64,000 bases of DNA from Gemmatimonadaceae bacterium (GCA_035455745.1 DATIEP010000023.1:16628-80627), one strand, 5' to 3'; shown: positions 40,737 to 62,548, counted from the stretch's first letter. Numbers and translations: made by a program. Notes: a model not told the origin generated them from the sequence alone.

Positions 40737-40766
40737 GAGTCGTTCAAGTAGATGAATTGAGCTGTC

Positions 40767-40784
40767 GTCTAACGCTTGTTAGGC
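40767..40784. repeat. Back-to-back box pair GTCTAAC-gctt-GTTAGGC (mini hairpin)
   Basis: 7-bp stem with 1 mismatch and a 4-nt loop, 30 nt upstream of the ATG at 40736. Confidence 0.6.
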
Positions 40785-40827
40785 GGCGTCGATAGACTGC
40801 AAGGGATTACAAAATCAAATCTTCTCT

Positions 40828-40931
40828 GCAGTCTAACACGCCCAACGCAAACGGACACGGGTTCGCATAAGTCCAATCGCTGCTCTTGTTTGACATACCG
40901 ACAGTTCACCATACGTCGGGTGTTAGACTGC
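40828..40931 (-). repeat. attC-like imperfect palindrome (P3)
   Basis: Perfect 12-bp outer stem gcaGTCTAACac (40828-40839) / gtGTTAGACtgc (40920-40931). Pairing continues inward with a bulged G, then cc/gg, a and cg. It is 98 nt box to box and lies 107 nt downstream of the esterase stop. Confidence 0.65.
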
Positions 40932-41038
40932 GACGTCGGTCAGCCTATTCCCCCGCTAAAGCCGAGCGTCCCGGAACATCCGCGACCTCGGCACCCAGCC
41001 GGAACTCATACCACAACCGTGCGCTGTCATTCACCGGC

Positions 41039-42787: not shown

Positions 42788-42948
42788 GACGTCCGGCCTC
42801 CGGAGTGAAGGACGGCGGAAGCATAGCGCATGGCCCGGACGTGCGCGACGCAGTCGCTTGTCGGGCGCGGCGCCTCGCTGAAGGTTATGCGACACGCCCA
42901 ACACTGCGCGCACGTACCGTACGCTCCCGGGGTGCTCGAGGCGCGCGA

Positions 42949-43225
42949 CTACCGCTGGAGGGCACTGGGACTCGGTCCCTTGCCTGGCATCACTGCCGCT
43001 TCGACTGACTGTCGGAGCTTGGTCACATCAACATCGAGATTACTGAGGACGGCCAGACCAATGCCGCCGGAATCGTCGAGGATGGCAAGTGCCGATGACT
43101 TCCCTTAGCACGAGCACGTCGTGGGGAACGCGGCGTTCGCCCATGCCCGCTCTCTCTGCAGCGCGTCGAAGGATGTCTGCGGCCTCTTTGGCCGCTAAGT
43201 CCGGATCAATGCCTGATTCGTTCAA
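42949..43225 (-). pseudogene. Clp N-terminal-domain-like gene, apparently frameshifted
   Basis: The 61-aa ORF (MNESGIDPDLAAKEAADILRRAAERAGMGERRVPHDVLVL) continues only after a +1 shift near 43100 as ALAILDDSGGIGLAVLSNLDVDVTKLRQSVEAAV..., with a stop at 42949-42951. Confidence 0.35.
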
Positions 43226-43324
43226 GACCGACTCCAGCAGTTCTACAAATCAGCTGGTACGTCGAGGCTCTCGGCGTCGTCGCCAGGCATCAAGAATACG
43301 ATCTGGGGAAAAAGTCATGTTGCA

Positions 43325-43422
43325 GCCTAACGCCCGAGCTAAGGTGCGGGCGAGTCAAAGAAAAGGGAATGCGCAGCATTCGCAATCATTACGTCGGTTG
43401 TCAGCTTCGGCGTTCGTTAGGC
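43325..43422 (-). repeat. attC-like imperfect palindrome (P2)
   Basis: Coding strand: GCCTAAC-GAACG-CCGAAGCTGACAACCG ... CCTTAGCTCGG-GC-GTTAGGC, 98 nt. The outer boxes are perfect and the inner pairing is about 9 bp with a bulge. Confidence 0.55.
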
Positions 43423-43802
43423 CGCCGCGTCGTGATGTGGGCCGGGTGAGACCCCGGTTGACGGAGCTGCTCTGGATAGCATGCAAGCCGGCGACGCCGG
43501 CACTATCGGCTATGAACGTGGCGGCGAGGTCGTGGTCCAGAGCACAATGCGCCATCCCGCCTCGGTGCGCGTGAGAACCATTGTGCCTGTTTCCGAGACC
43601 ACCTTCCGGGGAGTTCACCCTCGTCCAGACAGATGAAGTGTCCGAGATGGGAGGGCTGTCTCAACCGATCCAGGTAGGCCAGAAACTGCTCGTGAGTTCG
43701 TGGCGGCGAAGCCAAGCCGCGATGCAGTGCTCGGCTCCGGCGAACGGCCCCCAGAAATTCCTGCTCGCGTCGCCGGCTCGGAGTCTCGAGATGTACCGAC
43801 AT
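43355..43802 (-). pseudogene. GNAT (RimJ/RimL-like) acetyltransferase, probably frameshifted
   Basis: ORF 43503..43802 (EQEFLGAVRRSRALHRGLASPPRTHEQFLAYLDRL) has the typical N-terminus. The remainder is found only in an overlapping ORF in another frame (43355..43618). Confidence 0.45.
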
Positions 43803-43829
43803 GGAGAAATGCTTGGGGTAGGTCAGTCT

Positions 43830-43923
43830 GCCTAACGCCAGTGTTACGCCGCGGGCGAATCAAATAGATGCGAGTACAGCGAGCACTCCGCAACTCGACC
43901 GGCGGCTTCGACTTTCGTTAGGC
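43830..43923 (-). repeat. attC-like imperfect palindrome (P1)
   Basis: Coding strand: GCCTAAC-GAAAG-TCGAAGCCGCCGGTCGAG ... TCGCCCGCGGCGTAACA-CTGGC-GTTAGGC, 94 nt. The outer boxes are perfect, and the inner box GCCGCCGGTCGA/TCGCCCGCGGC pairs about 10/12. It starts 55 nt after the AraC stop and ends 27 nt before the GNAT start. Confidence 0.6.
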
Positions 43924-43978
43924 CGACGTGGTTGTACGTACGGTATTGCTCATGTGAATGGACACATGGCGGCCATCA

Positions 43979-44968
43979 CTACCGAGAAGCCGCCGCGCGC
44001 AAACGCTCGGCGTCCCGACGCGGTGGCTGACCAAACAGCCGGACGTACTCCCGATTGAACTGCGACGCGCTCGCGTAACCCACCTCATAGGCAACGGCTT
44101 CCGCACTCGTAGCTTCGGAAAGAAGGAGACGACGAGCCTCCTGCAGGCGCAGATGCTTCTGGTATTGAACCGGACTCATTGCGCACACCGCCTTGAAGTA
44201 GTGATGGAGTGCCGACGGGCTCATGTTGACGTGCTTCGCGAGAGCCTCGATCCGGAGCGGTTCCGCGAAGTGTTCTTTGATCCACGCAATCGCCCCAGAC
44301 ACCCGGCGCAGCCGCCCATCACCGATCGCCATCTGAGCCAAACGTCCAAACTGTTCGCTCTGGAGAAGTCTGTAGTGGAGCTCTCGCAGAATGAGCGGCG
44401 CCAGCACCGGGAGATCCTGCGGCGCATCGAGCAGCCGCACCAGGCGGAGGAACCCGTCGAGCAGCGGAGCCCGTAGCGCGCTCACGTAGAGGGCTCGTCC
44501 GTCGTGATCGTCTCGCGGTGCCTGCCGTCCCGTTTCCACGATCAATGCCGCGAGGTCCCGCGGGTCCACACTGAGAGTCATGCATAGGTACGGCTTGTTC
44601 GGGCTCGCTTCGAAGACACGCCCAACGGCAGGTAGATCCACCGAGACGGCAAGGTATTGTGACTGGTCGTAGATGTACGTCTCGTTGCCCACCGTCACTT
44701 CCTTTCGCCCCTGCGCCACAACGTACACCGCCGGCTCCATGAGGATGGTCGCCGATTCGGTTGGTTGTGAGTACCGATACAGCTTCAACTCCGTGATCGC
44801 CGTCTCGTTCCGCCCTTCGGAATTCGTCCGGCGCTCGAGCACCTTCGCGAGCTCGCGCCGTAGCGCTTCGGCAACTACCACAGTCTCCTCGCGTTCGGCC
44901 GATTCGGATCGACTGCGATTGAATTGCGTAGCTGCGCGTTTCCGATGAGTAGACAGGTTATTCGCCAT
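43979..44968 (-). CDS. AraC family transcriptional regulator
   Basis: 329-aa ORF with a C-terminal HTH_18 (LAKHVNMSPSALHHYFKAVCAMSPVQYQKHLRLQEARRLL...VGYASASQFNREY). Divergent from the aldo/keto reductase gene. Confidence 0.9.
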   Translation of the reverse strand: MANNLSTHRKRAATQFNRSRSESAEREETVVVAEALRRELAKVLERRTNSEGRNETAITELKLYRYSQPTESATILMEPAVYVVAQGRKEVTVGNETYIYDQSQYLAVSVDLPAVGRVFEASPNKPYLCMTLSVDPRDLAALIVETGRQAPRDDHDGRALYVSALRAPLLDGFLRLVRLLDAPQDLPVLAPLILRELHYRLLQSEQFGRLAQMAIGDGRLRRVSGAIAWIKEHFAEPLRIEALAKHVNMSPSALHHYFKAVCAMSPVQYQKHLRLQEARRLLLSEATSAEAVAYEVGYASASQFNREYVRLFGQPPRRDAERLRAAASR

Positions 44969-45158: not shown

Positions 45159-46136
<978 letters not shown>

Positions 46137-49273: not shown

Positions 49274-50194
49274 TCACAGCTCCATCAGGTCTCTCCCGAC
49301 GATGATTCGGCCCCCGAAATGCTTGCCGGCTGCATCGCGCCACATCGCCTCGGTGACCAAGGGATCGTCGCTCGGGATGAGGTGCGACAGCACCAGCGTG
49401 CCCACCTGCGCTTCGGCGGCGATACGGCCGGCCTCTTCCGCCGTCGTATGATGCGACAGGATGCTGCGCCGGAGATCCGATGCGTTAGGCACGTGCACGA
49501 CGAGCCGGTCGACCGATGCGGCGTCGAACAATGCCTCGTGCACCAGGATGTCCGCGTTCCGCGCCAGCGCGACCAAGCTCTCGCTCGGCGTCGTGTCGCC
49601 GGAAATCACGATCGACCGGTCCTCGGCGTCGAACCGGTACGCGAACGCGGGCGCGATCGGCGGATGGTGCACGACCGCTGCCGTCACGCGTACGTTGTCG
49701 TCGTGCATCACCGCGCCTCCGGCGCGCACGTCATGCGCGTGCACCAGCGGCCGAAGCGGTACCCGCCCTTCGTCGGCTGTCCTGGCGCTGATGTCCGTCG
49801 CATTCATTTCGAAGAACAGGTCCGTCATGCGCTCGAGCGGCGGCGGGCCCCAACCATCGAGCCGCGTGCGCAGGCCGGCCGCCCACGCGAGGAGGATCAG
49901 GTTGCCATAGTCCGCGTTGTGATCGGAATGATGATGCGTGATGAAGATGTGTCGCACGCTTCGGAGCGGCAGGTCCGCAAGCACGAGTTGTCGCGCGACA
50001 CCGTTGCCGCAGTCCACGACGTAGACCGTCTCATTGATCACGATTGCCTGCGCTGGCGCGGCGCGTGTCTTGTGCGGTCGCGGACCGCCGGCAGTGCCGA
50101 GCAGGACGAGCCGCGTGCGGCGGCGTTCCCAGCGCGCGAGGCGTGGCGCGGCGAGAAGCACGGCTGTGCTGGCGAGAAATTGGCGACGGTCCAT
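49274..50194 (-). CDS. MBL-fold metallo-hydrolase (RNase Z/BN-like), Tat signal
   Basis: MDRRQFLASTAVLLAAP is a Tat signal. ITHHHSDH is the MBL motif, and VLSHL lies near the C-terminus. Confidence 0.85.
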   Translation of the reverse strand: MDRRQFLASTAVLLAAPRLARWERRRTRLVLLGTAGGPRPHKTRAAPAQAIVINETVYVVDCGNGVARQLVLADLPLRSVRHIFITHHHSDHNADYGNLILLAWAAGLRTRLDGWGPPPLERMTDLFFEMNATDISARTADEGRVPLRPLVHAHDVRAGGAVMHDDNVRVTAAVVHHPPIAPAFAYRFDAEDRSIVISGDTTPSESLVALARNADILVHEALFDAASVDRLVVHVPNASDLRRSILSHHTTAEEAGRIAAEAQVGTLVLSHLIPSDDPLVTEAMWRDAAGKHFGGRIIVGRDLMEL

Positions 50195-50548: not shown

Positions 50549-51469
50549 TCAGTGCTTCTTCTTCGCGACCAGCGCGCTCTCGGCCGGCGCGAGCTCCCGG
50601 ACCTGCCACGGGCTCACCAGAAAGCGTACGCCGCCGGTGTCCGCACGCGCCGTCACTGCGCTCACAGCCGAGTCCATCGTTAGGCCGAAGATCGTCTTGC
50701 CGTGGCGATCCTGCAGTGCGATGTGGATCGGCGCGGCATGCCCCGCCGTCGAGTCGCTCGAACGCGCCGGCGCAAATCCCGATGCACGGAAATCGCGATA
50801 CTGGCCGAGCAAACTCGAGACAGCCGATGTGTCCGCCACTGCGCCCGAGGCGAATCGCCATCCGTTAGGCCCTCGCCGCAATGCATACGCCGCCTTCCGG
50901 CGAATCTCGATCGCGCCAACGCTGTCCGGCACGACATCGGCGATGCGCGTATCGCGCCATTCGTTCGCGTCGCGATGCAACGCCGACGCCAGCGCGCCGC
51001 GCAACGCATACACCGGATCCGCACTCGCCATCCGCACGTACACGCCGCTGCCATCGTCGGCCGCCTTCCCGGCCACCAGATCGAGCACCCTCGTGCCGCG
51101 TGCATCGACCCGCACCGATGTGCCGCTGTCCGGCGTGACGCCCAACTGCGCGTGCATGCCGCGCCCCTCCGATACCAGCTCCGTTTGCCTCGCCGTATCG
51201 GCGAGACCGCCTAACAACGACGCCACGGCGCCCGAATCGGCGCGATAGCCGTTCGCCGTCCAGTGCGCGCGCGCGGTCCCGCGCGCCAGCACGGTCGTGT
51301 CCCGACCTTTCGCCAGCACGATAGTATCCACGCGCGCGGTGTCGATGCGCGGCAGCGCCAGCGTCACGGGCCGGTCGGACACCGGGCCGTGCACGAGCGC
51401 CAGCGCGCCCCATGCCACCAGCGCAATCGCGAGCGCGACCGCGATCCGTACGAGCGCCGTCTTGCTCAT
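50549..51469 (-). CDS. DUF4340-like protein of the GldG-type ABC operon
   Basis: Start at MSKTALVRIAVALAIALVAWGAL (complement of 51467-51469), overlapping the upstream stop (ATGA). The long ORF-track N-terminus is a shadow. Confidence 0.6.
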   Translation of the reverse strand: MSKTALVRIAVALAIALVAWGALALVHGPVSDRPVTLALPRIDTARVDTIVLAKGRDTTVLARGTARAHWTANGYRADSGAVASLLGGLADTARQTELVSEGRGMHAQLGVTPDSGTSVRVDARGTRVLDLVAGKAADDGSGVYVRMASADPVYALRGALASALHRDANEWRDTRIADVVPDSVGAIEIRRKAAYALRRGPNGWRFASGAVADTSAVSSLLGQYRDFRASGFAPARSSDSTAGHAAPIHIALQDRHGKTIFGLTMDSAVSAVTARADTGGVRFLVSPWQVRELAPAESALVAKKKH

Positions 51470-53742
51470 ACGGCCGCCTCGACCAGCCCGGCCCCGCGGC
51501 GCTCGGGCGTCGCGCGCGACCGCCGGCGTCGCCGCAACAGATGCCCGAGGCCTAACAATGCCACGATCGCCGGCAGCGCCACCATGTTCCCGTATTCGGC
51601 CGTATCGTGCCTGGCCGCGCTGGCGAAACTGAGCGGCGGCGGCGCCACGTTCTTCGAGCGAATGCTGATCAGCGACTCGTCCTGCGCCAACCAGTCCGTC
51701 GCATTGAGCACCAGGTCGAGATTGCCCTGCGCATTCTGGACGAACCGGTCGCTCACGAAGTCCGAGTTGCCGACGACGATCACTCGACCGTGCGGCGCGA
51801 CGGCGCCCTTCCCCGTCCCGGTCGGCGCCACCTGCACCGCGAGCAAGCGCGACGCCAGCCCGTCCTGCGACCAATTCTGCGACGGCACGATCGTCGCGCT
51901 CCCGGTGTCCGCGCCCGAGGCGCGACTCGACACGAGCAGCGGCGTGATCGTGTAGCCTGTCTTCTTCGTCGTGTCGATGCTGCTCGTCCACGGCAGCAGC
52001 ACGTCGCTCACATCGCGATTCACCACCGATGCGCCCGTGCTGTGGGCGCGCACGAACAACGGATATCGCTGCACCACTTCCACGCCGCCGGATGTCGACA
52101 TCGGCACGATCGCATTCGCGGCGAGATCGTACACCATGTCGTTCCTGATCTGCACGCCGAAGGGTTCGAGCACCTGATTCCACGACACCACCTGCGGCGC
52201 CGCGATCGGATAGCGGTCGTTCACCCGCATGCCGGATGCGAGCACCAAGGCGCTGCCGCCGCGCTTGAAGAACGCGCTGTAGCGCGCCGCCGCGCGAGGC
52301 GTCAGCATCGGCGGCGAGCCGACGAGTACCAGCGCGGTCACGTCCGGCGCCGGCTGCGTCGAATCGGTGGCCGACACGGTCCGCACGGTGTACGACTTGC
52401 CGAGCTCCTGCGTCAGCTCGCCTAACGTCGAGCCCTGCTGGCCGGCCGTCGCCGTGGCGTCCATCACGGCTACCACCGGTTTCTTCGGCTGCGTGAGGGC
52501 GCGAATGTCGCTCACGATCTGATACTCGAGGTCATCGGTGCTGCTCACGAAGGGGATGGTCTGCGTCTTCGACCCGTACTGGATCGCGAGACCCAGCCAC
52601 CCGTCCTTCACCTGCAGCTCCGACTGGCCGACGACGTTGAACTGCACCGGCTCGATGCCTAACGACTCGGCGTCGTTGCGCGCCGGCACGTCGCTCGACG
52701 GATCGCGCCGTTCGACGCGGATCTTGTCGTGCGCGGCCGAGCGCAGGTCGCGCAGCAGGTCGTCCATCTCGTGCTGCATCAGCGCGACGCGCGTCGGCAG
52801 CTGGCTCGACGCGAACACCTTGATCGTCACCAGATCGTCGAGGTGCCCGACGATCTGCTTCGTGGCCGGCGACAGCGTGTACGCCTTGCCCGGCGTGAGG
52901 TCGAGCCGGCCGCCGATGTATCCACCCAACAAGTCGATGACGACCAGCGTTGCGACGAGCAGCGATACGCCGAGCCGGAGGCGCCGCGCCGCCGCACCCC
53001 GGCGCGCGAGCTTGCGGCGCAGCACCGCGCCGTACGCCAGTGCCAGGAACACGCCGATGAGCGACAGGAAGTACACGGCATCGCGCGCGTCGATCACGCC
53101 GCGGCCGATGTTCTCGAAGTGCGACAGCACGCCTAAGCGTGCCGCGCCCGCAGCCAGGGTCGGCGGCAGGCCGACGAGCAGCTGGTCGAGCCCCACCAGA
53201 ATGAGCACGAACATCACCGCGACCGCCGCGATGAACGCCGTGATCTGGCTGCGCACGAGGCTGCTCGCCCACACGCCGACAGCGGCGAGGCCGGCCGCCA
53301 GCAGCGCCGCCCCCACGTATTGCGCGGCCACCGGGCCCCACTGCACGTCCGCTCCTAACGTTAGGCCGAGTGGGATGCAGAGGGTGAGGGCCAGCGCGAT
53401 CCACAGGAACAACACCGCGCCGACGTACTTGCCCACCACGAACTCGAGCTCGGTGAGCGGCTGCGACAGCACCACTTCCATCACGCCGCTGCGGGCATCC
53501 TCGGCCAGCGTGCGCATGGTGACCGCCGGCACGAAGAACAGGAACACCCACGGCAGCAGCGCGAGCATCGGCCGCAGCGTGGCGATGCCCTGCATGTCGA
53601 TCTCGCGGAAATACAAGAACGCGTTGATCGCCAGAAATACCACGAGCAGCACGTACCCCGTGGGGTGATCGAACATCGCCCCCAGCTCTCGGCGCGCGAT
53701 GGTCCAGATGCGGTGCCAGGCACCGCGCGAAGCACGCGTCAT
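51466..53742 (-). CDS. ABC-2 type permease fused to GldG-like (ABC-type uncharacterized transport system) domain
   Basis: Start at MTRASRGAWHRIWTIARREL (overlaps the ATPase stop, ATGA). Six hydrophobic helices are followed by a large extracytoplasmic domain and a C-terminal anchor (YGNMVALPAIVALLGLGHLL). Confidence 0.7.
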   Translation of the reverse strand: MTRASRGAWHRIWTIARRELGAMFDHPTGYVLLVVFLAINAFLYFREIDMQGIATLRPMLALLPWVFLFFVPAVTMRTLAEDARSGVMEVVLSQPLTELEFVVGKYVGAVLFLWIALALTLCIPLGLTLGADVQWGPVAAQYVGAALLAAGLAAVGVWASSLVRSQITAFIAAVAVMFVLILVGLDQLLVGLPPTLAAGAARLGVLSHFENIGRGVIDARDAVYFLSLIGVFLALAYGAVLRRKLARRGAAARRLRLGVSLLVATLVVIDLLGGYIGGRLDLTPGKAYTLSPATKQIVGHLDDLVTIKVFASSQLPTRVALMQHEMDDLLRDLRSAAHDKIRVERRDPSSDVPARNDAESLGIEPVQFNVVGQSELQVKDGWLGLAIQYGSKTQTIPFVSSTDDLEYQIVSDIRALTQPKKPVVAVMDATATAGQQGSTLGELTQELGKSYTVRTVSATDSTQPAPDVTALVLVGSPPMLTPRAAARYSAFFKRGGSALVLASGMRVNDRYPIAAPQVVSWNQVLEPFGVQIRNDMVYDLAANAIVPMSTSGGVEVVQRYPLFVRAHSTGASVVNRDVSDVLLPWTSSIDTTKKTGYTITPLLVSSRASGADTGSATIVPSQNWSQDGLASRLLAVQVAPTGTGKGAVAPHGRVIVVGNSDFVSDRFVQNAQGNLDLVLNATDWLAQDESLISIRSKNVAPPPLSFASAARHDTAEYGNMVALPAIVALLGLGHLLRRRRRSRATPERRGAGLVEAAV
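53354..53365. repeat. Perfect 12-nt palindrome CCTAACGTTAGG (two overlapping copies of the abundant word)
   Basis: Lies inside the permease CDS, where it is read as L-T-L-G using CTA and TTA codons. Confidence 0.9.
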
Positions 53743-54680
53743 GATTTGTCCTCCGCACCCGTGAGATGCCGGAACAGGTCTTCCAGGGTTTCTGCTTCGC
53801 GGTGGAGCTCGAGGAGCGTCCACCCGCGCGACTTCGCGAGATCGAACACGTCGGCGCGAATGTCGCGGCCGCGTTCGGCGGCGAGACGGAACTTGGAGGT
53901 GTCGCCGGCCGTGTCCTGCTCCTCTATGGATTGCACACCAGGGAGCGCCGCGAGCGCGTCGCCGCCGCCGGCTCCGCGCAGCTCGACCACTACGTGGGCG
54001 CTCCCCGCGTCGCCGCTCAACAGCACGTCGACTGCTCCGTCGGCCGCGATGCGCCCGCGATTGATGATCACGACGCGCGAGCACGTATGTTGGACCTCGG
54101 GCAGCACGTGTGTCGAAAGAATCACCGTGCGCTCCCGGCCTAACTCGCCAATCAGGCGTCGGATCTCGATGCGCTGATTGGGGTCGAGCCCTTCGGTCGG
54201 CTCGTCGAGCACGAGGAGATCGGGCCGGTGGAGGATCGCCGCGGCGAATCCGACGCGCTGCTTGAATCCCTTGGACAGCTCGGCGATGGGCCGCTGGTAG
54301 ACGCTGCCGAGTCCGGTCGCGTCCACGGCGTCCTCGATCGCGCGGCGGCGATCTTCGCCGCGCAGCTCGCGCAGTCGTGCGACGAAGTCGAGGTACTCCG
54401 CGACGAGCATCTCGCCGTACAGCGGGTTGTTCTCGGGGAGAAAGCCGAGCCGGCGCTTTGCGTCGCGGCCGGCCTCGGAGAGGGGCACGCCATCGAGCCG
54501 GATTTCGCCGGCGTCGGGCTCGTAGACTTGCGTCACCATGCGCATGGTGGTGGACTTGCCGGCGCCGTTGGGCCCGAGAAATCCGACCACGTGTCCGCGG
54601 TCGATGCTGAACGACACGTCATCGACGGCGGTGATGCCGTCGAAGCGCTTGGTGACGCGTTCCAGGGTAAGCAGGGACAT
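53739..54680 (-). CDS. ABC transporter ATP-binding protein
   Basis: Start at MSLLTLERVTKRF. GPNGAGKSTT is Walker A, LSKGFKQRV the signature and LLVLDEPTEGLD Walker B. Confidence 0.9.
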   Translation of the reverse strand: MSLLTLERVTKRFDGITAVDDVSFSIDRGHVVGFLGPNGAGKSTTMRMVTQVYEPDAGEIRLDGVPLSEAGRDAKRRLGFLPENNPLYGEMLVAEYLDFVARLRELRGEDRRRAIEDAVDATGLGSVYQRPIAELSKGFKQRVGFAAAILHRPDLLVLDEPTEGLDPNQRIEIRRLIGELGRERTVILSTHVLPEVQHTCSRVVIINRGRIAADGAVDVLLSGDAGSAHVVVELRGAGGGDALAALPGVQSIEEQDTAGDTSKFRLAAERGRDIRADVFDLAKSRGWTLLELHREAETLEDLFRHLTGAEDKS

Positions 54681-55358: not shown

Positions 55359-57815
55359 CTAACCGTCAGCGCGGAGCGCCGTCATCGGGTCGACGCGCGC
55401 GCCGGTGCGAGCCGGGCCGATGCTGGCCAGCGCCGCGATGCCGGCCAGCATCATCACGACGCCGGCGAGCGTGACAAGATCAGTCGGTCCGACGCCGTAG
55501 AGCAGCGCCGAGAGCGCCCGGTTCGCCCACGATGCGGCGACCAGTCCAGCAACCGCTCCGGCGGCGGCGATCATCAACCCTCTGCCTAACACCATCGATC
55601 GAATTGCAGACGCTGTCGCGCCCAACGCAATGCGAACGCCGATCTCGTGCGCGCGCTGCCGCACCATGGTCGACATCACGCCGAACAGACCGATCGCTGC
55701 CAGCACCACAGCCGCGCCGGCGAAGGTCAGCAACAAGAACGTGTTCAGGCGCGGCTGGCCGAGCGGCTCGCGCATGTAGGTCGCGAACGGCGCGGCGGTG
55801 GCAAGCCGGACACCCGGCGCCGCGTGGTCGATCACGCGGCGAATGACCGGCACGAGCGCGTTCGGGTCGCCCGTGGAACGAATCGCGAGCGTCGTTGGCG
55901 TGAATGCCAACGAGCTTTGCGCGACGGGGAAGTACACGCTCGGCAGCACGTCACGAAGGTCACGATAGCGCGTATCCGGTACGACGCCAATGACGGTGAA
56001 CAGTTCATTCGGTGACGGTCCCATGATCAGTTGCCGGCCGATCGGATCGCGGCCCGGCCAGTAGGCGCGCGCTGCGCTTTGGCTCACGATCGTCACCCGT
56101 TCGGCGCCTTCATGGTCGCCATCGGTGAAGGCACGACCGCGCAGGACCGGAAGACCAAACGCCGCGAAATAGTCCGGCGACACCACTTCCATGTCGAACG
56201 TAGCGTTCGTCGCGGCCTCGGCGTCCGACTGCCCAACGGTGCGCGCATGCCCGGTCCATCCGCCGTTCCCCGAGAACGGGCGCGCCACCACCGGCGAGAC
56301 GCCCTGCACGCCCGGCGTTGCGCTCAGCTGTATCACCAGCTCGCGCACGAGCGAAGCCAGCGACGCGGTCGAACCGTATTCATCGTAGCGAATGGCGAGC
56401 TCGGCCACGAGCATGTGCGACGCGTCGAATCCCAGCTTCGCGCTCTGCAGGTTGAGCAGGCTCCGCCCAACGAGGGCGGCGGCGGAGAGCATCACGACGG
56501 CGAGAGCGACCTGCGCCGCCGCCAGCGCTTCGCGCAGGCGGCGCGGTCCGTGTCCGGCGCTCTGCCTCGCGCCGGATCGGAGTTGCGCGTTGACGTCGCC
56601 GCGCGTCGAGAGGAATGCCGGCGCCAGACCGAACAGCAGTGTGGCGATCGTCGTGATGCCTAACGCCGCGATCAGGGCGGTACGATCGAGTCGGACGCGG
56701 CCGAGGAGCGGAATCTGCGTTGGCGCGAAGGCGAGAAAGCCGCCGACGGCGAGCGCAGCCACCGCGAGGCCGGCCACGCCTCCGGCCAGCGCAAGCACCG
56801 AGTTCTCGGCCACGAGTTGCGCGATGATTCGCGAGCGAGAGGCGCCGAGCGCGACACGGACCGCCATCTCGCGCGTACGCGCCAGTCCGCGGACGAGCAG
56901 CAGATTGGCGACGTTGATACACGCGATGATCAGCAACACGGCCGCCGCGGCGGCGAATGCAAACACAGCCGGTCGCGCATCGCCCAATATCACCGCTGTG
57001 AGTGCACGCGCTCGACCACGAAGCGCGCGCTGGCCGATCGGCGCATCGGCGCGATGGAAGAATGCGGTGAGCTCGTTCGCCGCTGCGGCCGCGGTGGCGC
57101 CGCGCGCCAGCCGCCCAACGAGATAGAGTGCCGTATACGCGCTGGTGTCGCTGGCGCTGGTCAACCGCGCCGGCACGAAGGGCGCCCAGAAATCTGCGCC
57201 GGTGGGGAATGCGACGCCGCGAGGCATCACGCCGACGACCTGATACCGTAGACCGAATTCTTCGGCCGAGAGAATGCGGCCGATGACGGCCGGATCCTTG
57301 TCGAACCAGCGTTGCCAGGCCTCGTAGCTGATGACGGCCACCGGCGCGGCGCCGAAGAGGTTGTCGTTAGGCGTGAGCACGCGCCCCAGAACCGGCGGCG
57401 CGCCAAGGACCGTGAAGTAGTTGCCGGATACGAGGGCGCGGCGCAGGCGCACATCGGCGTCGCCGAGCCGGACGGTGACGGGCCACGCGCCTTCGTACGC
57501 CACGTACGCGACGCTCTGCTCGGCTCGGGTACGTTGGGCGAAGTCGCGCGTGTCGGCGAGGTCGAGCGGCACGTGGTCGATCGAGCGGCCGTGCGCTTCG
57601 CCCCACAACTCGACGAGGCGGCTCTGGTCGCGGACGGGAAGTCGGCGCAGCACGAGCGCATCGGCGACGGTGAACACCGCCGTCGATAAACCGATGCCTA
57701 ACGCGAGGATGGCGATCACGGTCGCCGAGAACCGCGGCGCGCGGGCCAGGGCGCGGAGCTGCGAGCGGCCGTCGTGCAGCAGACTCACTCGATGTCCCTC
57801 GCCGCCTTCACGCAT
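55359..57815 (-). CDS. Duplicated orphan FtsX/MacB-type ABC permease (ADOP-type)
   Basis: Start at MREGGEGHRVSLLHDGRSQLRALARAPRFSATVIAILALGIGLSTAVFTV (complement of 57813-57815). The protein ends ...RTGARVDPMTALRADG. The stop TAG is inside GTTAGGC. Confidence 0.8.
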   Translation of the reverse strand: MREGGEGHRVSLLHDGRSQLRALARAPRFSATVIAILALGIGLSTAVFTVADALVLRRLPVRDQSRLVELWGEAHGRSIDHVPLDLADTRDFAQRTRAEQSVAYVAYEGAWPVTVRLGDADVRLRRALVSGNYFTVLGAPPVLGRVLTPNDNLFGAAPVAVISYEAWQRWFDKDPAVIGRILSAEEFGLRYQVVGVMPRGVAFPTGADFWAPFVPARLTSASDTSAYTALYLVGRLARGATAAAAANELTAFFHRADAPIGQRALRGRARALTAVILGDARPAVFAFAAAAAVLLIIACINVANLLLVRGLARTREMAVRVALGASRSRIIAQLVAENSVLALAGGVAGLAVAALAVGGFLAFAPTQIPLLGRVRLDRTALIAALGITTIATLLFGLAPAFLSTRGDVNAQLRSGARQSAGHGPRRLREALAAAQVALAVVMLSAAALVGRSLLNLQSAKLGFDASHMLVAELAIRYDEYGSTASLASLVRELVIQLSATPGVQGVSPVVARPFSGNGGWTGHARTVGQSDAEAATNATFDMEVVSPDYFAAFGLPVLRGRAFTDGDHEGAERVTIVSQSAARAYWPGRDPIGRQLIMGPSPNELFTVIGVVPDTRYRDLRDVLPSVYFPVAQSSLAFTPTTLAIRSTGDPNALVPVIRRVIDHAAPGVRLATAAPFATYMREPLGQPRLNTFLLLTFAGAAVVLAAIGLFGVMSTMVRQRAHEIGVRIALGATASAIRSMVLGRGLMIAAAGAVAGLVAASWANRALSALLYGVGPTDLVTLAGVVMMLAGIAALASIGPARTGARVDPMTALRADG

Positions 57816-57875
57816 CGGCCGATCGTCTCCCAGGTGCGCGTCGTCACGTCCGGACCGAACGTCTTGGCGATGAGC
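57654..57875. repeat. Left copy of the duplicated DUF1697-3'end / permease-5'end junction
   Basis: 57654-57707 matches 62417-62470 (50/54). 57797-57875 matches 62471-62548 (about 74/78). The 89 nt at 57708-57796 are missing from the right copy. Confidence 0.8.
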
Positions 57876-58071
57876 CTCGAATTTCCCGGCATCGCGCCGC
57901 AAGGGCGGTATCGGCACTGATCGCACGGGTCCCATGCACAATCTCGTTGATGCGCCGGGCCGGCACGCTCATGTCCTTGGACAGTCGATACTGCGAAATG
58001 GCCAAGGGCCCGAGAAAGTCCAGCGCGAGCACTTCGCCCGGGTGAATCGGAGCCAATTTGCGCTTTGCCAT
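57844..58071 (-). pseudogene. higA: HigA-family antitoxin, C-terminally truncated at the repeat boundary
   Basis: MAKRKLAPIHPGEVLALDFLGPLAISQYRLSKDMSVPARRINEIVHGTRAISADTAL is typical HigA. After about 57886 the reading frame runs into the duplicated DUF1697 3' segment. Confidence 0.6.
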
Positions 58072-58078
58072 CGAAACC

Positions 58079-58330
58079 TCAGTGATAGTCGACGATTTCC
58101 ACGTCATACGCGTTCCCGTCCTTCCAGCGAAAGCAGATTCGCCACTGATCATTGATCCGAATGCTGTGCTGGCCGGCTGATCGCTTGTCGGCTTCGGCGT
58201 ACGCTCGGCAGCGGCGGCGAGATCGATGCGTCGCGCACGCTATGGACGATTCATGATCGCGGCTTCCGAACGGGCGCGGTCTGCCAAAACTCTCGATCCG
58301 CCTGCACCCACTCGGGCGCCGGCATTCTCC
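58079..58330 (-). pseudogene. higB: HigB (RelE/ParE-family killer) toxin, frameshifted
   Basis: The C-terminus is intact in one frame (SAGQHSIRINDQWRICFRWKDGNAYDVEIVDYH*, stop at 58079-58081). N-terminal pieces are recoverable only in the two other frames (..DREFWQT.. and ..RARRIDLAAAAER..). Confidence 0.55.
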
Positions 58331-58360
58331 AGTTGGGCCGGACGGCGAATTATTCGTGTT

Positions 58361-58462
58361 GTCGATCGAACGTCCCAGTTCAGCTGCACGTGAGCTTTAT
58401 TAGGCGCTTGGCCAAGCCGTGGCAATCATTCGATCGCTTGTCAGCTGCAACGTTCGTTAGGC
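58361..58462 (-). repeat. attC-like palindrome with degenerate 3' box (P8)
   Basis: Coding strand: GCCTAAC-GAACG-TTGCAGCTGACAAGCG ... CACGTGCAGCTGAACTGGGA-CGTTC-GATCGAC, 102 nt. The 5-nt spacers pair perfectly, and the inner boxes share the CAGCTG core. It starts 7 nt after the RES stop. Confidence 0.5.
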
Positions 58463-58469
58463 GGCTTGC

Positions 58470-58931
58470 TCAGCGGAGCAAACGAGGATCGAAGTCGTAC
58501 ACAGAGATGGAATCGACTGTAAGCCGGCCAAAGTGTGCGTGCTCCGGATTGATGAGAATGTTGAATCCTCCGTCAACAATCACGCTGGGGACTCGCAAGG
58601 CCAAAGAGCGTCCGGACGTGATCCACTCATCGCCGACAGTCTGAACTGACGAAGGGACTGGCGAAACCTTCCAGTCTTTCGGCAACGCACCTGGAGCGAG
58701 ATCCTCCACAAGGGAGTCAGGCACCGTCGCCGAGATCAGCGAGTATCCAACTGGTGATCCGCCGCCTCCACTCAGATGAACCAGAACCTCCAACACGGCG
58801 AGCGCAGAGTTGCCTGACGCGTAGGCGACACGCGTCCCACGGCTGTTCCATCGCGCCCCGTACAGTCGAGCGCCCTCGCCGTTGAACGCGGTAGCGGCAT
58901 ACCGAGTCTTGGTTAGGCGCCAAACGCGCAT
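58470..58931 (-). CDS. RES-domain toxin (NAD+-degrading family)
   Basis: MRVWRLTKTRYAATAFNGEGARLYGARWNSRGTRVAYASGNSALAVLEVLVHL carries the R..E..S signature. Confidence 0.85.
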   Translation of the reverse strand: MRVWRLTKTRYAATAFNGEGARLYGARWNSRGTRVAYASGNSALAVLEVLVHLSGGGGSPVGYSLISATVPDSLVEDLAPGALPKDWKVSPVPSSVQTVGDEWITSGRSLALRVPSVIVDGGFNILINPEHAHFGRLTVDSISVYDFDPRLLR

Positions 58932-58934
58932 CGC

Positions 58935-59420
58935 CTAGGTCGGAATTCCGTGAGCCAACCGGCCAATCAAGCTCTCTACCTCAATGGCTCCAACATCGGT
59001 CGATGCAAAGTCGATTGGCGTTCGGCCTCCAAGCGCCTTGACAGGGTTGGTAAGCCAGCGTTGCGCGGCATCCGCGCTTCCTTCGAACAACTCGATTGCG
59101 CGGGCAACGATTCGCGACATGCGAACCAAGCGATCTGTTTCGTCGCGCGCGAAGCGCCCACTCTCCTTTCGTCTTGCAAGTGTGCGTTCAGGAATCTCGG
59201 CCACTTGCGCGAGAACGCGATATGGGAGGTCCGTATTGCGATGAAACCTCTCAAACGCGGCGTACGTGAGCCCGCGCCGAATGTGTTCGACAACGTACAG
59301 AGGATCGTAGTTTCGCAGGCCGAATAGCGCGACGTAGTAATGGCCTGCTCGATGGCCTGCTTCCTGATGACTCAGAAGCTCGGCGATATCGGCTGGGATC
59401 TTACGGGCTGTGCTTACCAT
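58935..59420 (-). CDS. Xre/MbcA/ParS-type antitoxin (DUF2384)
   Basis: Start at MVSTARKIPADIAELL. The C-terminus AAQRWLTNPVKALGGRTPIDFASTDVGAIEVESLIGRLAHG is the typical toxin-binding domain. A Shine-Dalgarno aggagg precedes the ATG. Confidence 0.8.
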   Translation of the reverse strand: MVSTARKIPADIAELLSHQEAGHRAGHYYVALFGLRNYDPLYVVEHIRRGLTYAAFERFHRNTDLPYRVLAQVAEIPERTLARRKESGRFARDETDRLVRMSRIVARAIELFEGSADAAQRWLTNPVKALGGRTPIDFASTDVGAIEVESLIGRLAHGIPT

Positions 59421-59434
59421 GCCGCCTCCTGGCT

Positions 59435-59466
59435 GCCATATGGCGTAACTTACAACGCCATATGGC
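59435..59466. promoter_or_regulatory. Perfect 11-bp inverted repeat, candidate operator of the Xre-RES module
   Basis: gccatatggcg (59435-59445), a 10-nt loop, then cgccatatggc (59456-59466), beginning 15 nt upstream of the antitoxin ATG. Confidence 0.45.
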
Positions 59467-59487
59467 AACTGCCAAGGCGCGAGCCGA

Positions 59488-59637
59488 CTAGCCTCCTAGG
59501 CGAAATTGCAGGGAACGCCGAACAGTCGCCAGGTCATCTCCATAGTGAAGGCGGACAAACTCGAAGACCTCGCGAGGCGCGTGGTCATGTTGGGTCATGT
59601 CGGCGAGGAGATCTTCTTCAAGTTGGGAGAGTACCAT
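59488..59637 (-). CDS. Possible 49-aa ORF at the head of the Xre-RES cassette
   Basis: Hand translation gives MVLSQLEEDLLADMTQHDHAPREVFEFVRLHYGDDLATVRRSLQFRLGG*. The ATG lies 9 nt after the 3' box of P9. It is too short for the ORF track. Confidence 0.25.
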   Translation of the reverse strand: MVLSQLEEDLLADMTQHDHAPREVFEFVRLHYGDDLATVRRSLQFRLGG

Positions 59638-59646
59638 TTGCACAGC

Positions 59647-59741
59647 CAGAAACGCCCGAGTTCAGCTGGCCGGCGGCCACGTGGACCGTGCATGCGGTCG
59701 GAGCGTTAGGCTGTCACGTCAGCCCGAACGAGCCGTTAGCC
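59647..59741 (-). repeat. attC-like palindrome with degenerate 3' box (P9)
   Basis: Coding strand: GGCTAAC-GGCTC-GTTCGGGCTGAC ... GGCCAGCTGAAC-TCGGGC-GTTTCTG, 95 nt. The inner boxes pair about 9/12 with one bulge. Confidence 0.45.
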
Positions 59742-59780
59742 CGAAGGCGAGCCGACGGGTGGGTTGCGTCCCCATCCCCA
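59721..59780. repeat. Non-coding copy of the 60-nt block that forms the Imm50-like gene 3' end at 60407-60466
   Basis: 54/60 identical. It would read SPWGWGRNPPVGSPSG* but is preceded by an in-frame stop. Confidence 0.8.
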
Positions 59781-59837
59781 GGGTGATCATCGACCGAAAC
59801 GCTTAGCCATAGCCACAAGAGGAGGCAACGACTCAGC

Positions 59838-60242
59838 TTATGAAGCGGCAGCCAGCGTCTTGAACGGTACCGTGGCCACGATCCCCCTGACCTGCTTGCG
59901 GAGATCCGCGTCAAGGGTGACGAACGCGTCAGCCTGGAGCTTGGCGACGGCGATGTACTCCGCCTTACCAGTATCTGCCCACCCCAGTTGCTCCGCCATC
60001 TTCCACGCGACAGCCCGTGAGACGCGGTCGCCAAGAAGGCGCACGCGCATCGATGTTATTCCATCAAGGAGTGCCGTCGCATCGTCTTGGCTCACCTCTC
60101 CCCGACGATATGCTCGGTACACAATCGATAGCGCATCAGATCGCAAGACATTGGGGCCAACAAGCTGGTGCGCGCTCGGCACCACGATCCCTTCACGAAC
60201 CAGCCGGACGGCAACCTCCGCGTCGATACCATAACGAGTCAT
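59838..60242 (-). CDS. PIN-domain-like protein (VapC-like), no cognate antitoxin gene seen
   Basis: Start at MTRYGIDAEVAVRLV. The C-terminus GKAEYIAVAKLQADAFVTLDADL resembles the D-x-YIA-A...L-T-D region of PIN toxins. Confidence 0.45.
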   Translation of the reverse strand: MTRYGIDAEVAVRLVREGIVVPSAHQLVGPNVLRSDALSIVYRAYRRGEVSQDDATALLDGITSMRVRLLGDRVSRAVAWKMAEQLGWADTGKAEYIAVAKLQADAFVTLDADLRKQVRGIVATVPFKTLAAAS

Positions 60243-60275
60243 AGCCGTTGCGTACCTCAAGTCATTTCGTGGTCG

Positions 60276-60376
60276 GCATAACGCCGAGTTCACCCGCACG
60301 CGCACATCAACAAGATGCGGCCGCGCAGCGGCCGCCGTCCCGAACCGTGCTTGTCGGGTGCAACGCTTCGTTAGGC
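60276..60376 (-). repeat. attC-like imperfect palindrome (P7)
   Basis: Coding strand: GCCTAAC-GAAGC-GTTGCACCCGACAAGC ... GCGTGCGGGTGAAC-TCGGC-GTTATGC, 101 nt. The inner boxes pair 13 bp with 1 mismatch and 2 bulges. The loop contains the GC hairpin gcggccgc-tgc-gcggccgc (60317-60335). The element ends 33 nt before the PIN ATG. Confidence 0.65.
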
Positions 60377-60406
60377 CTCAGCGAGGATGATGCCTGCACG
60401 CGCTCG

Positions 60407-60466
60407 AGCCCTAACGAGTCGTTAGCGCGTATGCGAGCCAACGGGTGGGTTGCGTCCCCATCCCCA
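60407..60466. repeat. 60-nt junction block (coding copy, 3' end of the Imm50-like gene)
   Basis: See 59721-59780. It includes the mini hairpin ctaacg-agt-cgttag (60411-60425) around the stop codon. Confidence 0.8.
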
Positions 60467-60895
60467 CGGCTCGACCCTGCGGACTACTGCGTCGTTGCAG
60501 CTGAAGCGGCCCCCGACGCCGTGGGAGCTCGCCAGCACCACCTCGAACTTTGCCCACTCCAGCTGATCGCGTGTCCGATCCATGATCGCCAGCTCCCAGA
60601 GTGCATTCTGGTCGTTGAACTCCGAGAGCTCAAGCTGCGCGATCCGTCGGAACTCGAACGTGACAAGGCACTCCTTCGACAGGACGTATGTGCCATTCGG
60701 CTCGACCCCGGGACCGGCCAGGTACGCGTAGACTGCCAGCGTGAGTGTCGGCCCCGCGTTCTCGCCAAACCCGCCGCGGTCGAGCACGAGCTGCACAACC
60801 TGGGCATCGTGAAACGTGGGCCAGTGGCCGAACCACTCGACGACGAGCTGTGCACCGTCGATGGACGGTGCGATTGGAGAATCGGATGGCGGCAC
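60422..60895 (-). CDS. Imm50-like immunity protein (polymorphic-toxin immunity family)
   Basis: 157-aa ORF. WFGHWPTFHDAQVVQLVLDR matches the FG-x-WP-x-FHDA signature I associate with Imm50-family proteins. No toxin gene is adjacent. Confidence 0.45.
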   Translation of the reverse strand: MPPSDSPIAPSIDGAQLVVEWFGHWPTFHDAQVVQLVLDRGGFGENAGPTLTLAVYAYLAGPGVEPNGTYVLSKECLVTFEFRRIAQLELSEFNDQNALWELAIMDRTRDQLEWAKFEVVLASSHGVGGRFSCNDAVVRRVEPWGWGRNPPVGSHTR

Positions 60896-60916
60896 GGGCG
60901 AAGGAACGTGTGTGCG

Positions 60917-61040
60917 GGCTAACGCGTAAGGTCAGCTGCGGCGGCGGCATTCGCAGGCGCCAGACAATCAGATAATGCGATGCACCAGCCAAGCGCGCCA
61001 GTATGCATTCAGCGCCGTCCGCTGCAGCGCCTCGTTAGAC
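60917..61040 (-). repeat. attC-like imperfect palindrome (P6)
   Basis: Coding strand: GTCTAAC-GAGGC-GCTGCAGCGGACGG ... CCGCCGCCGCAGC-TGACCTTACGC-GTTAGCC, 124 nt. The inner boxes pair about 10/14. It ends 21 nt before the Imm50-like ATG. Confidence 0.55.
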
Positions 61041-61136
61041 GGAGCCCCTCAGGTGTACGGAGGCGCCGACCACCCGCGGAAGCGTGCGAAGCGGACGGGC
61101 AAAGCGATCCAGTTCTGCGTTCGACGCCAACCCTCG

Positions 61137-61586
61137 CTATTCGTCGTCCGGGATGCCGCGAAGCGCCTCAAGAAATGCGCGCGAACCAGCGCCGTCAGGC
61201 AGGCCCCGCAGGGCCTTGAGCATCGCAACGGGACCGCGCCCGTGCTCGAGACCCCAACTGTGTCCTCGAGCGAACGCGGCGTAGATCTCGTGACGCATCA
61301 CCCGATGGATCTCCCGGCCGAGTTGGCGTCTGGCCCGCCGCTGACGCCAGTAGCGCTCGGGATTCGCTGTTGCTTCCGCCATCAGGCGGGTCTCTCGGCG
61401 CGATAACCGGCGGAGGGGGTGGCCTAAAACGTCGGCCCACCGGGCGCCAGGCTTGAGCGCCCGCATGCGTTGCAGCAACGCGTCGCGGCCATCACCGGCC
61501 ATGGCGAGAGCGCCGAGGCGATCCGGGATCAGCCCAAGGCGCTCCGCTTCCGCGTCGAATGCCTCGATAAACTCCTCCGAAGTCAT
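61137..61586 (-). CDS. Hypothetical protein
   Basis: 149-aa ORF. The ATG overlaps the stop of the upstream gene (ATGA at 61583-61586). No family recognised. Confidence 0.5.
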   Translation of the reverse strand: MTSEEFIEAFDAEAERLGLIPDRLGALAMAGDGRDALLQRMRALKPGARWADVLGHPLRRLSRRETRLMAEATANPERYWRQRRARRQLGREIHRVMRHEIYAAFARGHSWGLEHGRGPVAMLKALRGLPDGAGSRAFLEALRGIPDDE

Positions 61587-62314
61587 CTCTCCCCCACGAT
61601 GCGTCTCGGCGCCACGCCTAACGCCAACGTTCGGCTGCGAGCGCGCAGGAATGCGACTCCCGATGCGGCTCGGTCGCCGGGCGCGCCCGTCAGCCGCGAC
61701 AATCCGTTAGGCATCGGCTCGCGCCCCTCGCTCACGGCGCGCGGCGCGGGCTGCCGAGCCGCCGCGCAGCCGCGCGCCATCCTTAGGTGGGTTGTCAGCT
61801 GCAACGATCGATGTGCGTGTTCCGCTGCGATCAAGGCGCGACTCGCGGCAATCCGGAACTCCTGAATGGGGAACTGCGTCCCAGCGCAGAACTCCTCTAT
61901 CACAGCCAGTGCAGAATCGTAGAGGTCGCTCCGGCGCAGAGCGAGAACCAGTTCCGCGTACCCGAGGTAGCCATCGTCGCCCACCTGGGGGAAGGCGCGT
62001 CGGGCCAAGAAGGCACGTTGGTAGGAATCGAGGGCTTCTGATGCCCGCCCGAGATCGACGAGCGATTCGGCGCGGAGCGCGAGTGCGGAAGCGAGTTGAC
62101 ATGGATCGGGGAATTCAAGAATGAGCCGATCCAGGAGTCCGAGCGCAGCACGCGTCAGATGTTCGTCGCCCGCCTCAAATAGATGCGCCGCCTGAATACG
62201 CAGGTACTGCGCCTTACGGTGAGCTCCGCGTGAGCGAGCGAGTCTCGCATTGAACTCGGCCGCATCGTGGTCACTCCACGTCGATCGACGAAACCACTCA
62301 ACCTTTTCCGTCAT
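61583..62314 (-). CDS. Helical-repeat (TPR-like) hypothetical protein
   Basis: Start moved to MTEKVEWFRRSTWSDHDAAEFNARL (complement of 62312-62314). The ORF-track N-terminus (MREGGGLALGIGRSTAVFIVAGAL) is the decayed permease 5' fragment of the right repeat. Confidence 0.5.
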   Translation of the reverse strand: MTEKVEWFRRSTWSDHDAAEFNARLARSRGAHRKAQYLRIQAAHLFEAGDEHLTRAALGLLDRLILEFPDPCQLASALALRAESLVDLGRASEALDSYQRAFLARRAFPQVGDDGYLGYAELVLALRRSDLYDSALAVIEEFCAGTQFPIQEFRIAASRALIAAEHAHRSLQLTTHLRMARGCAAARQPAPRAVSEGREPMPNGLSRLTGAPGDRAASGVAFLRARSRTLALGVAPRRIVGER

Positions 62315-62416
62315 CGTGATCTGGTGCCGTATACCGCCCGAGCTAACGTGCGGAGCCGCAGGGTCAGAGCAACACGTTGACACAACATCGCCGCACCGCA
62401 TCATCATTTCATTGCG

Positions 62417-62548
62417 GAGCGCACCGGCGACGATGAACACCGCCGTCGATCGACCGATGCCTAACGCGAGCCCGCCGCCTTCACGCACCTGCCGATCGTC
62501 TCCCAGGTGCGCGTCGTCACGTCCGGACCGAACGTCTTGGCAATGAGC
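62417..62548. repeat. Right copy of the duplicated DUF1697-3'end / permease-5'end junction
   Basis: Carries the intact DUF1697 3' end plus a permease start remnant (MREGG..LALGIG.STAVF) with an 89-nt internal deletion relative to 57654-57875. Confidence 0.8.

Follow-up and report, generated by a model that had tools for sequence, protein, structure and literature searches.

A row of short genes lies at positions 57876-62416 of a 64,000-nt stretch of DNA from a Gemmatimonadaceae bacterium (GCA_035455745.1, DATIEP010000023.1:16628-80627), the whole of which is referred to here as the window. As read from the sequence, the genes are all on the minus strand in a single orientation and have attC sites in between. 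In integrons, the integrase IntI recombines the folded bottom strand of the attC hairpin at AA|C of the R box. The array has about six cassettes of 0.6-1.3 kb, with one gene or one toxin-antitoxin pair per cassette, and its G+C content is 0.59-0.63 versus 0.66-0.72 in the flanks. The region is very probably a cluster of attC sites lacking integron integrases (CALIN) in the chromosome of a farmland-soil Gemmatimonadaceae bacterium, that is, a set of cassettes and attC sites without a nearby integrase. Sites are named by their coordinates or, where an initial annotation of this DNA had already numbered them, as P6 to P9.

Genes and cassettes of the array

Read along the coding strand, the array begins with an open reading frame (ORF; 61583-62314) for a helical-repeat protein that the initial annotation called tetratricopeptide repeat (TPR)-like, a label that remains tentative at a TPR E-value of ~0.3. 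The frame continues through attC remnants and through the attC site at 61712-61616, and its real 3' end is therefore uncertain; this cassette is absent from the relatives L135/L136. The site at 61712-61616, a strong one that had not been listed, separates this ORF from the following one, so that what had been taken for a single unit ('TPR-like + hypothetical') is two cassettes. The second of these carries an ORF for a 149-aa hypothetical protein (61137-61586) that starts 30 nt past the preceding R' box, found no family match in profile searches and is kept in L135/L136. Behind it lies the 3' remnant of another ORF (61035-61119). We read its stop codon as a TAA within P6, in the R'' box, and in L136 the remnant is joined to the next gene. 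That gene (60422-60895) belongs to the Imm50 family of immunity-like proteins (Pfam PF15594, E 1e-10), as had been proposed, and has no toxin partner nearby. A duplicate of its 3' end, together with a mini inverted pair, occurs at 59721-59783 (89% identical to 60407-60469; repeat family D2).

The gene at 59838-60242 has no adjacent antitoxin gene and no hidden Markov model match in Pfam or NCBIfam. It is predicted to encode a PIN-domain (VapC-like) nuclease, since its AlphaFold2 model (predicted local distance difference test score 94) matches the structures of PAE0151, PAE2754 and VapC at template modelling scores of 0.70-0.75, and residues D7, D90, E95, D105 and D111 are invariant. Homologues at 60-70% identity bear the database name of VapC family toxins, and the closest named ones come from Actinomycetota (Agromyces, Actinoplanes and Leifsonia). 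The structural match upholds the PIN fold suggested earlier. The lack of an antitoxin gene does not require orphaning by cassette capture, because a 70%-identical homologue is likewise solitary in its own genome. This PIN subfamily may lie outside toxin-antitoxin pairs.

The following cassette holds an ORF of 51 aa (59488-59643; gene calling, no family match), which had been given as 49 aa, upstream of an Xre/ParS-type antitoxin gene (58935-59420; NF049845, 106.5 bits against a cut-off of 90, and Pfam) and a RES/ParT-type toxin gene (58470-58931; NF049844, 160 bits against a cut-off of 110). The two latter genes are 3 nt apart and correspond to the definition of a type II RES/Xre (ParT/ParS) pair, in agreement with the initial call. 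The array ends with a higB pseudogene (58075-58345), of which the C-terminal part alone is in frame (PF05015, E 0.005, last 25 aa), and with higA (57876-58071), which is truncated after about residue 65 since its TIGR02607 match (59 bits) covers positions 2-53 of an 81-position profile. The description of higB as frameshifted and higA as truncated therefore stands, and judging from these frames the higBA pair appears to be dead and is not counted here as an intact HigBA system. A HigA protein at 77% identity is found in another array, L106. A consensus scan, the consensus being weakly informative for this phylum, located no sigma-70-like promoter on the coding strand of the array, which is weakly in favor of the promoterless cassettes proposed for it.

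A family of attC sites in Gemmatimonadota

attC sites have R' and R'' boxes, an unpaired central spacer and a variable terminal structure, and they carry extrahelical bases close to L'' in the arm that faces the bottom-strand AAC where cleavage takes place; usually the first of these bases is G, and a 6-bp stretch separates it from the furthest, a conserved T (Nivina et al. 2016, PMC5027507). R boxes by themselves had to be dropped as evidence for attC sites, because the heptamer GTTAGGC, or its complement GCCTAAC, occurs 87 times in the window and is uninformative alone, and the argument therefore needs the whole element. A simple regular expression for R''...R' with a gap of 40-70 nt missed all of the sites, which are 94-124 nt long, and Rfam at its gathering threshold gave no match in the window.

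As a collecting pattern we used the 5' arm common to three window elements and scanned one genome per bacterial or archaeal species with it. The scan returned at least 118 stretches, nearly all of them in metagenome-assembled genomes (MAGs) of Gemmatimonadota and some with 3-4 copies per 3-4 kb. The full external elements measure 92-101 nt and are highly alike, with a top strand of the form RYCTAAC-GAAC-GTT[G]CAGCTG[A]CAAG...CTTG-CAGCTG-AAC-TAAGGC-GTTAGGC. On the bottom strand the extrahelical bases are C and T, exactly 6 bp apart and on the correct arm; all 41 family members share these positions without variation, and 61712-61616, P7 and P8 have them as well. The sole departure from a canonical attC site is that the first extrahelical base is C, again invariant in the 41 sequences, rather than the usual G. 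RNAalifold recovered part of the hairpin only, and the structure was therefore written by hand and tested by pair counts. In the 41 external sequences 93.4% of the cells of this hairpin are paired, versus 26-44% in slid controls; 113 cells are changed on both sides, and 10 pairs have double changes. An alignment of these 41 non-redundant external elements and the hand-written hairpin make up covariance model R1.

A tblastn search with IntI1, which served as a probe only, found full-length homologues at 48-52% identity beside sites of the family in L061, L097, L081, L069, L073, L022 and L110, and a frameshifted one beside family sites in L039. The integrases of L081 and L073 match the TIGR02249 integron-integrase model along its full length at 437-441 bits (cut-off 265). 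Directly after intI, R1 detects 13 sites in L081, 12 in L110, 7 in L061, 5 in L073 and 4 in L022; these sites have the same orientation as intI, and scores within the arrays are 25-104 bits. These sequence matches show an attC family that is specific to Gemmatimonadota; in other genomes its sites, as many as 13 to an array, come right after genuine intI genes. Its apparent tie to an integron integrase is this association with TIGR02249 integrases in arrays. The loci L081 (264-8000), L110, L061, L073 and L022 are complete chromosomal integrons in Gemmatimonadaceae MAGs with up to 13 attC sites. A GTTAGGC at ~1320 in L081 is the likely attI crossover point, and a HicAB cassette follows at 1750-2160. 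The same type of site also occurs in L061, L069, L019 and L090, contigs binned as Steroidobacteraceae, Nitrospira, Blastocatellia and Chloroflexota, two of them with intI, which reflects either inter-phylum transfer or mis-binning.

Run on the window with filters off, R1 gave exactly six strong matches of 45-65 bits (next best, 14 bits), all on the minus strand and all inside two arrays, the present one and a second cluster described below. They are 43422-43325 (64.9 bits), 40135-40042 (63.5 bits), 58462-58365 (P8, 58.5 bits), 43923-43830 (56.5 bits), 60376-60276 (P7, 50.0 bits) and 61712-61616 (45.4 bits). Four of the six (P7, 61712-61616, 43923-43830 and 40135-40042) are not matched by the collecting pattern and are therefore independent tests of R1, and the 87 GTTAGGC copies yield no false match outside the two arrays. 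The covariance model thus recognizes three sites of the present array at 45-58 bits, leaving P6 at 13 bits and P9 undetected.

Individual sites and remnants

The site at 61616-61712 (E 6e-10) has a perfect R-box pair GCCTAAC/GTTAGGC, an L box and two extrahelical bases 6 bp apart, and its bottom strand forms an end-to-end hairpin with paired R boxes (-27.5 kcal/mol). P7 (60276-60376; E 3e-11), with R'' GCCTAAC and R' GTTATGC, has an L box in which GTT[G]CACCCG[A]CAAGC pairs with CGGGTG-AAC; its bottom strand folds end to end with the R boxes paired at -26 kcal/mol (z -2.2), and a GC-rich stem followed by a T-rich tail lies within it. P8 (58365-58462; E ~1e-13) retains an intact 5' arm, which fits the collecting pattern by construction, and an intact L box; its third stem is disrupted, its fold is shifted, and its R' box, GTTCGAT, is non-consensus. 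P6 (60917-61040) is long at 124 nt, with R'' GTCTAAC and R' GTTAGCC; both of its arms align with a subfamily of 122-135 nt from integrase-linked arrays, and its hairpin pairs the R boxes. P9 (59647-59711) is a half-site with R'' GCCTAAC, the L' arm CAGCTGAAC and a decayed R' box GTTTCTG. P8 and P9 had both been described as keeping the 5' arm with decayed 3' boxes, which is correct for the arm of P8 and for the R' boxes of both; P9 lacks the L'' arm, and its 5' arm is therefore not kept. R boxes pairing as RYYYAAC/GTTRRRY are present in 61712-61616, P6 and P7, and the R' boxes of P8 and P9 depart from this pattern.

More advanced decay is seen at several places. The remnant at 62339-62416, recognized by comparison with the family consensus, consists of a terminal loop and 3' arm with R' box GTTAGCT (62345-62339); it is cut mid-site at a permease fragment and has no fold of its own. 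A decayed 5' arm (GTTGCAGCTGACAACC; 61790-61805, repeat family D5) has lost its R'' box and lies within a weak R1 match (61816-61758, 8.4 bits). Two 18-nt pairs made up of R boxes only are located at 60427-60409 and 59741-59722. The former, GCTAAC-GACTC-GTTAGGG, overlaps the stop codon of the Imm50 gene, scores 11.6 bits and is probably a collapsed attC site reduced to its R box.

The spacing between sites and genes is that described initially, except that a mere 3 nt separate the end of P9 from the GTG of the 51-aa ORF. The folding energy of single-stranded DNA fails as a discriminator in this GC-rich DNA (z -0.01 to -2.2), where the shape of the fold alone is informative.

Borders, relatives and the search for an integrase

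The array is bracketed by two copies of a host junction. The upstream copy (62417-62548, minus strand; repeat families D1 at 96% and D3 at 93%, and comparison with L007) fuses the last 76 nt of a DUF1697 gene (62473-62548) to a 54-nt 5' fragment of a permease gene (62417-62470). The downstream copy (57654-57875, 222 nt) has the DUF1697 3' end and the intact start of the ADOP/MacB-like permease gene (55359-57815). An internal segment of 92 nt, present in the downstream copy and in L007, is missing from the upstream copy (130 nt). The left border cuts an attC site mid-site and the right border truncates higA, and the outer borders are duplicated host sequence, not integrase-type junctions.

Relatives carry the locus in other states. 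Contigs L001-L006, found via the exact DUF1697 protein, are ~99.9% identical and have the same array, with 8-17 single-nucleotide polymorphisms per 10 kb and no indel; L140-L149 were found via the exact permease protein, a query independent of the presence of the array, and have the same array in the same gene order. Both sets are from farmland soil, and at least 16 population contigs from more than ten samples carry the same array without a cassette indel. The array is fixed in the sampled population and static there. At ~95% identity, L135/L136 share the left junction; the TPR cassette, higBA and the permease gene are absent, P6 is deleted, and ~850 nt of extra small cassettes follow the 149-aa gene. 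At ~91% identity, the DUF1697 gene of L007, L131 and L132 abuts the permease gene, that is, the site is empty, and a P6(3')-Imm50-P9'-P7-PIN block lies downstream of the permease gene in place of a 147-aa ORF. This block is bracketed by a 41-nt duplication (L007 3567-3607 and 5352-5392) that starts at the GGTTAGGC lying across the permease stop codon. At ~75% identity (L009-L012), the permease gene comes after DUF1697 directly or past one gene, and a model search of L009 and L011 gave no attC matches. Over short evolutionary distances, then, content and position shift in cassette-sized units. In two different genomes the cassette block is flanked by direct repeats of a host junction (222/130 nt and 41 nt), a pattern that insertion by an integrase does not produce and that suggests duplication and deletion, or homologous recombination by single-crossover integration of DNA with host homology.

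The G|TT edge of P8 fits integrase chemistry, as the sequence just past it (TTCGATCGACAACACGAA) recurs behind the PIN gene of L007. Exact crossovers, either attC x attC or attC x GTT, were tried for each difference between the window, L007 and L135/L136, and this was the only edge that fitted; the remaining junctions fall inside sites or in host sequence.

Searches by tblastn with IntI1 and two Gemmatimonadaceae IntI proteins returned noise only across the window and the adjoining 7 kb carried by contig L001, so that neither intI nor a remnant of it occurs in the 57 kb downstream and the 7 kb upstream of the array. In the integrase-linked loci of this lineage intI is directly upstream of its array; the genes in that place here (DUF1697, DUF3224, SnoaL, SpoU methylase and CutC) are host genes common to array-less relatives. 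Two genes considered as intI candidates for their size, AraC (43979-44968) and an aldo-keto reductase (45159-46136), are not intI. A CALIN is a group of at least two attC sites within ~4 kb with no integrase nearby, a class reportedly defined by Cury et al. in 2016. The array has three strong sites and P6 inside 3.3 kb on one strand without intI, and the set of intI, adjacent attI and Pc promoter that makes a complete integron is not present at it.

The GTTAGGC motif and the remainder of the window

The 87 copies of GTTAGGC/GCCTAAC in the window (for example at 57696, 62459, 55357, 12838 and 48345) lie on both strands (48 and 39), at 3-9 per 4 kb, evenly spread and unskewed. GTTAGGC is the most over-represented 7-mer, 7.3-fold above a third-order Markov expectation, versus 15 copies for a control heptamer of reversed order. 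The motif is sharp, (C)GTTAGGC(R), with few one-mismatch variants, and sits mostly within core genes, where it is read as nnG-TTA-GGC; short inverted pairs also occur. It forces the rare TTA codon; 23 of the 34 TTA codons of long core genes sit in it, and it overlaps several stop codons. Permease genes with just 74% identity to each other keep copies of it at orthologous positions. The motif is also present in L007-L012, and its density in relatives is 1.1-1.7 per kb. The cassette ORFs are nearly free of it. GTTAGGC is identical to the integron core site and is the commonest R' box of the attC sites of this lineage. A literature search on its over-representation, or on uptake sequences of Gemmatimonadota, found nothing relevant.

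The window holds seven genes or gene fragments of MacB/FtsX-type (ADOP-like) permeases (10275-12842, 26077-28995, 29785-32463, 33269-34717, 34584-37061, 51466-54084 and 55359-57815), each with a GTTAGGC at a conserved LALGIG-coding position near its start; in relatives, PadR-type regulators precede several of them. The second attC cluster ('array 1'; ~37000-44000, minus strand) includes the strong sites 43923-43830, 43422-43325 and 40135-40042 (56-65 bits) as well as weak or remnant sites at 40928-40831, 39207-39126 and 38975-38925. It likewise has no integrase and is just upstream of the ADOP/MacB-like permease gene 34584-37061. A metallo-beta-lactamase-fold protein (49274-50194, minus strand) has a precomputed Pfam match to Anti-Pycsar_Apyc1 in identical population contigs. 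A stretch of lower G+C content (~19000-25500, 0.60-0.65) contains a gene (20172-23621) for a 1149-aa protein with RNase_H_2 and AAA_11/AAA_12 helicase domains and may be a separate acquired segment.

Discussion

What kind of element is the array? The initial annotation saw cassettes separated by attC-like elements and placed them in a sedentary chromosomal integron. The first part has held up well, in that P8, P7 and 61712-61616 match a model built from independent integrase-linked Gemmatimonadota arrays, and the array varies among relatives, with an empty site at 91% identity and other cassette content at ~95%. The assigned class has not, since with no integrase near the array it is a CALIN and not a complete or sedentary chromosomal integron. 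It is a decaying one, as its half-sites, mid-site truncation, frameshifted higB and truncated higA demonstrate. Several results weigh against this assignment. R1 is specific to the lineage, and the pattern that gathered its training set came from three elements of the window. Under R1, P6 falls short of significance (13.4 bits, E 0.34), and P9 is missed by R1 and has no attC-type fold. Bottom-strand folding energies are not clearly beyond those of shuffles (z -0.5 to -2.2). Moreover, the outer borders and several internal differences from relatives miss the G|TT crossover point, and integrase action at this locus is therefore inferred only.

The likely history of this CALIN is that each cassette was first taken up by an integron integrase. 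The array no longer has an integrase beside it and is in decay. Its present position and borders would be the outcome of host-sequence duplication, deletion or homologous recombination and not of site-specific insertion. The RES/Xre pair, which looks intact, may hinder loss of the array. Expression of the cassettes would need read-through from upstream or internal promoters.

An alternative is that the array is the distal part of a live integron, with an intI beyond the window or elsewhere in the genome that acts in trans and still excises and shuffles cassettes. Three or four sites look intact, relatives differ by cassettes, the block that L007 lacks has its right edge at the G|TT of P8, and the same attC family is tied to intI in other Gemmatimonadaceae. 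However, the searched 57 kb downstream and 7 kb upstream are free of intI and of its remnants, the position directly upstream where intI would normally be found is taken by syntenic host genes of array-less relatives, no cassette indel is seen among sixteen population contigs, which come from more than ten samples, and many junctions are away from attC crossover points, all of which makes a live integron unlikely. It is very improbable that the elements are hairpins or terminators formed by inverted GTTAGGC pairs and that their likeness to attC sites is coincidental. The abundance of the motif in core genes and as short inverted pairs speaks for such structures, as does the GC-rich stem with a T-rich tail in P7, but despite 87 motif copies the full-length model matches the two arrays only. 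In addition, an L box, two bulged bases 6 bp apart and compensatory changes are features of attC sites and not of terminators, and the same family is found in arrays beside TIGR02249 integrases.

A conventional gene cluster passed on vertically, in which every toxin-antitoxin or immunity gene has a promoter of its own, would account for an array that is the same in all population contigs and for the intact look of RES/Xre, yet it is hardly tenable. The cluster is absent from the site at 91% and ~75% identity and has another composition at ~95%, and low G+C content, pseudogenes and attC remnants do not suit such a cluster. The lack of a sigma-70-like promoter on the coding strand points the same way, although as evidence it is weak.

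As CALINs and cassettes with toxin-antitoxin, immunity and PIN genes are of known kinds, the assignment of the array to a CALIN is confirmatory. It provides a documented example of integron cassettes for Gemmatimonadota, a common soil phylum in which integrons have been listed but hardly described, and the lineage-specific attC family and its model could help to assign soil metagenomic cassettes to this phylum. The three arrangements in close relatives show a detached cluster that has been reshaped by ordinary duplication and deletion together with cassette-sized changes.

The part likeliest to lead to something new is the excess of GTTAGGC, which behaves like an uptake-type or recognition motif by analogy. 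It is conceivable, if rather doubtful, that the presence of GTTAGGC in both attC sites and host core genes is no coincidence, the copies in the chromosome being either secondary integrase targets or an uptake or recognition signal, possibly together with a distinct mode of recognition connected with the C-for-G change. If so, a chromosome seeded with GTTAGGC as secondary IntI targets would explain several detached clusters per genome and their shifting positions; alternatively, GTTAGGC would be an uptake-type or recognition signal common to cassettes and host chromosome. For its part, the first extrahelical base, invariably C where G is usual, may mark a distinct mode of integrase-attC recognition in co-directional integrons.

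Comparison with known systems

The motif resembles the DNA uptake sequences of Neisseria (DUS) and the uptake signal sequences of Pasteurellaceae (USS) in being short and exact, in its frequency of ~1 per 0.7 kb and its equal use of both strands, in occurring within genes in preferred frames with conservation at orthologous positions, and in being rare in acquired cassette ORFs. Unlike DUS and USS, it is merely 7-8 nt long and identical to the integron core site.

CALINs form a recognized class, and Gemmatimonadota are among the phyla with integrons (PMC8618304). The present array is like described CALINs in its chromosomal location, in attC sites that are less than 4 kb apart in one orientation, in short and mostly single-gene cassettes and in having no intI nearby, and its signs of decay fit the proposed origins of CALINs by rearrangement or loss of intI. 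It differs from them in belonging to a phylum where they have barely been described, in the C at the first extrahelical base and in the 130/222-nt duplication of a host junction that brackets it. Sedentary chromosomal integrons such as the Vibrio cholerae superintegron with its VCR sites likewise have a lineage-specific family of highly similar attC sites, toxin-antitoxin genes among cassettes of unknown function and differences in content between related strains. In contrast to that superintegron, the array has no intI, attI or Pc, comprises about six cassettes and is decaying and static in its population.

Closest at hand are the Gemmatimonadaceae integrons L081, L110, L061, L073 and L022, which have the same attC family, with overlapping R1 scores, and similar cassette sizes. 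Toxin-antitoxin cassettes recur among arrays of this group, with HicAB in L081 and HigA homologues in L106 and L084. A co-directional, or 'inverted integrase', layout occurs in some non-proteobacterial integrons, and it is in this layout that these integrons differ from the window, where no integrase is found: a TIGR02249 integrase stands directly upstream of their cassettes and is co-directional with them.

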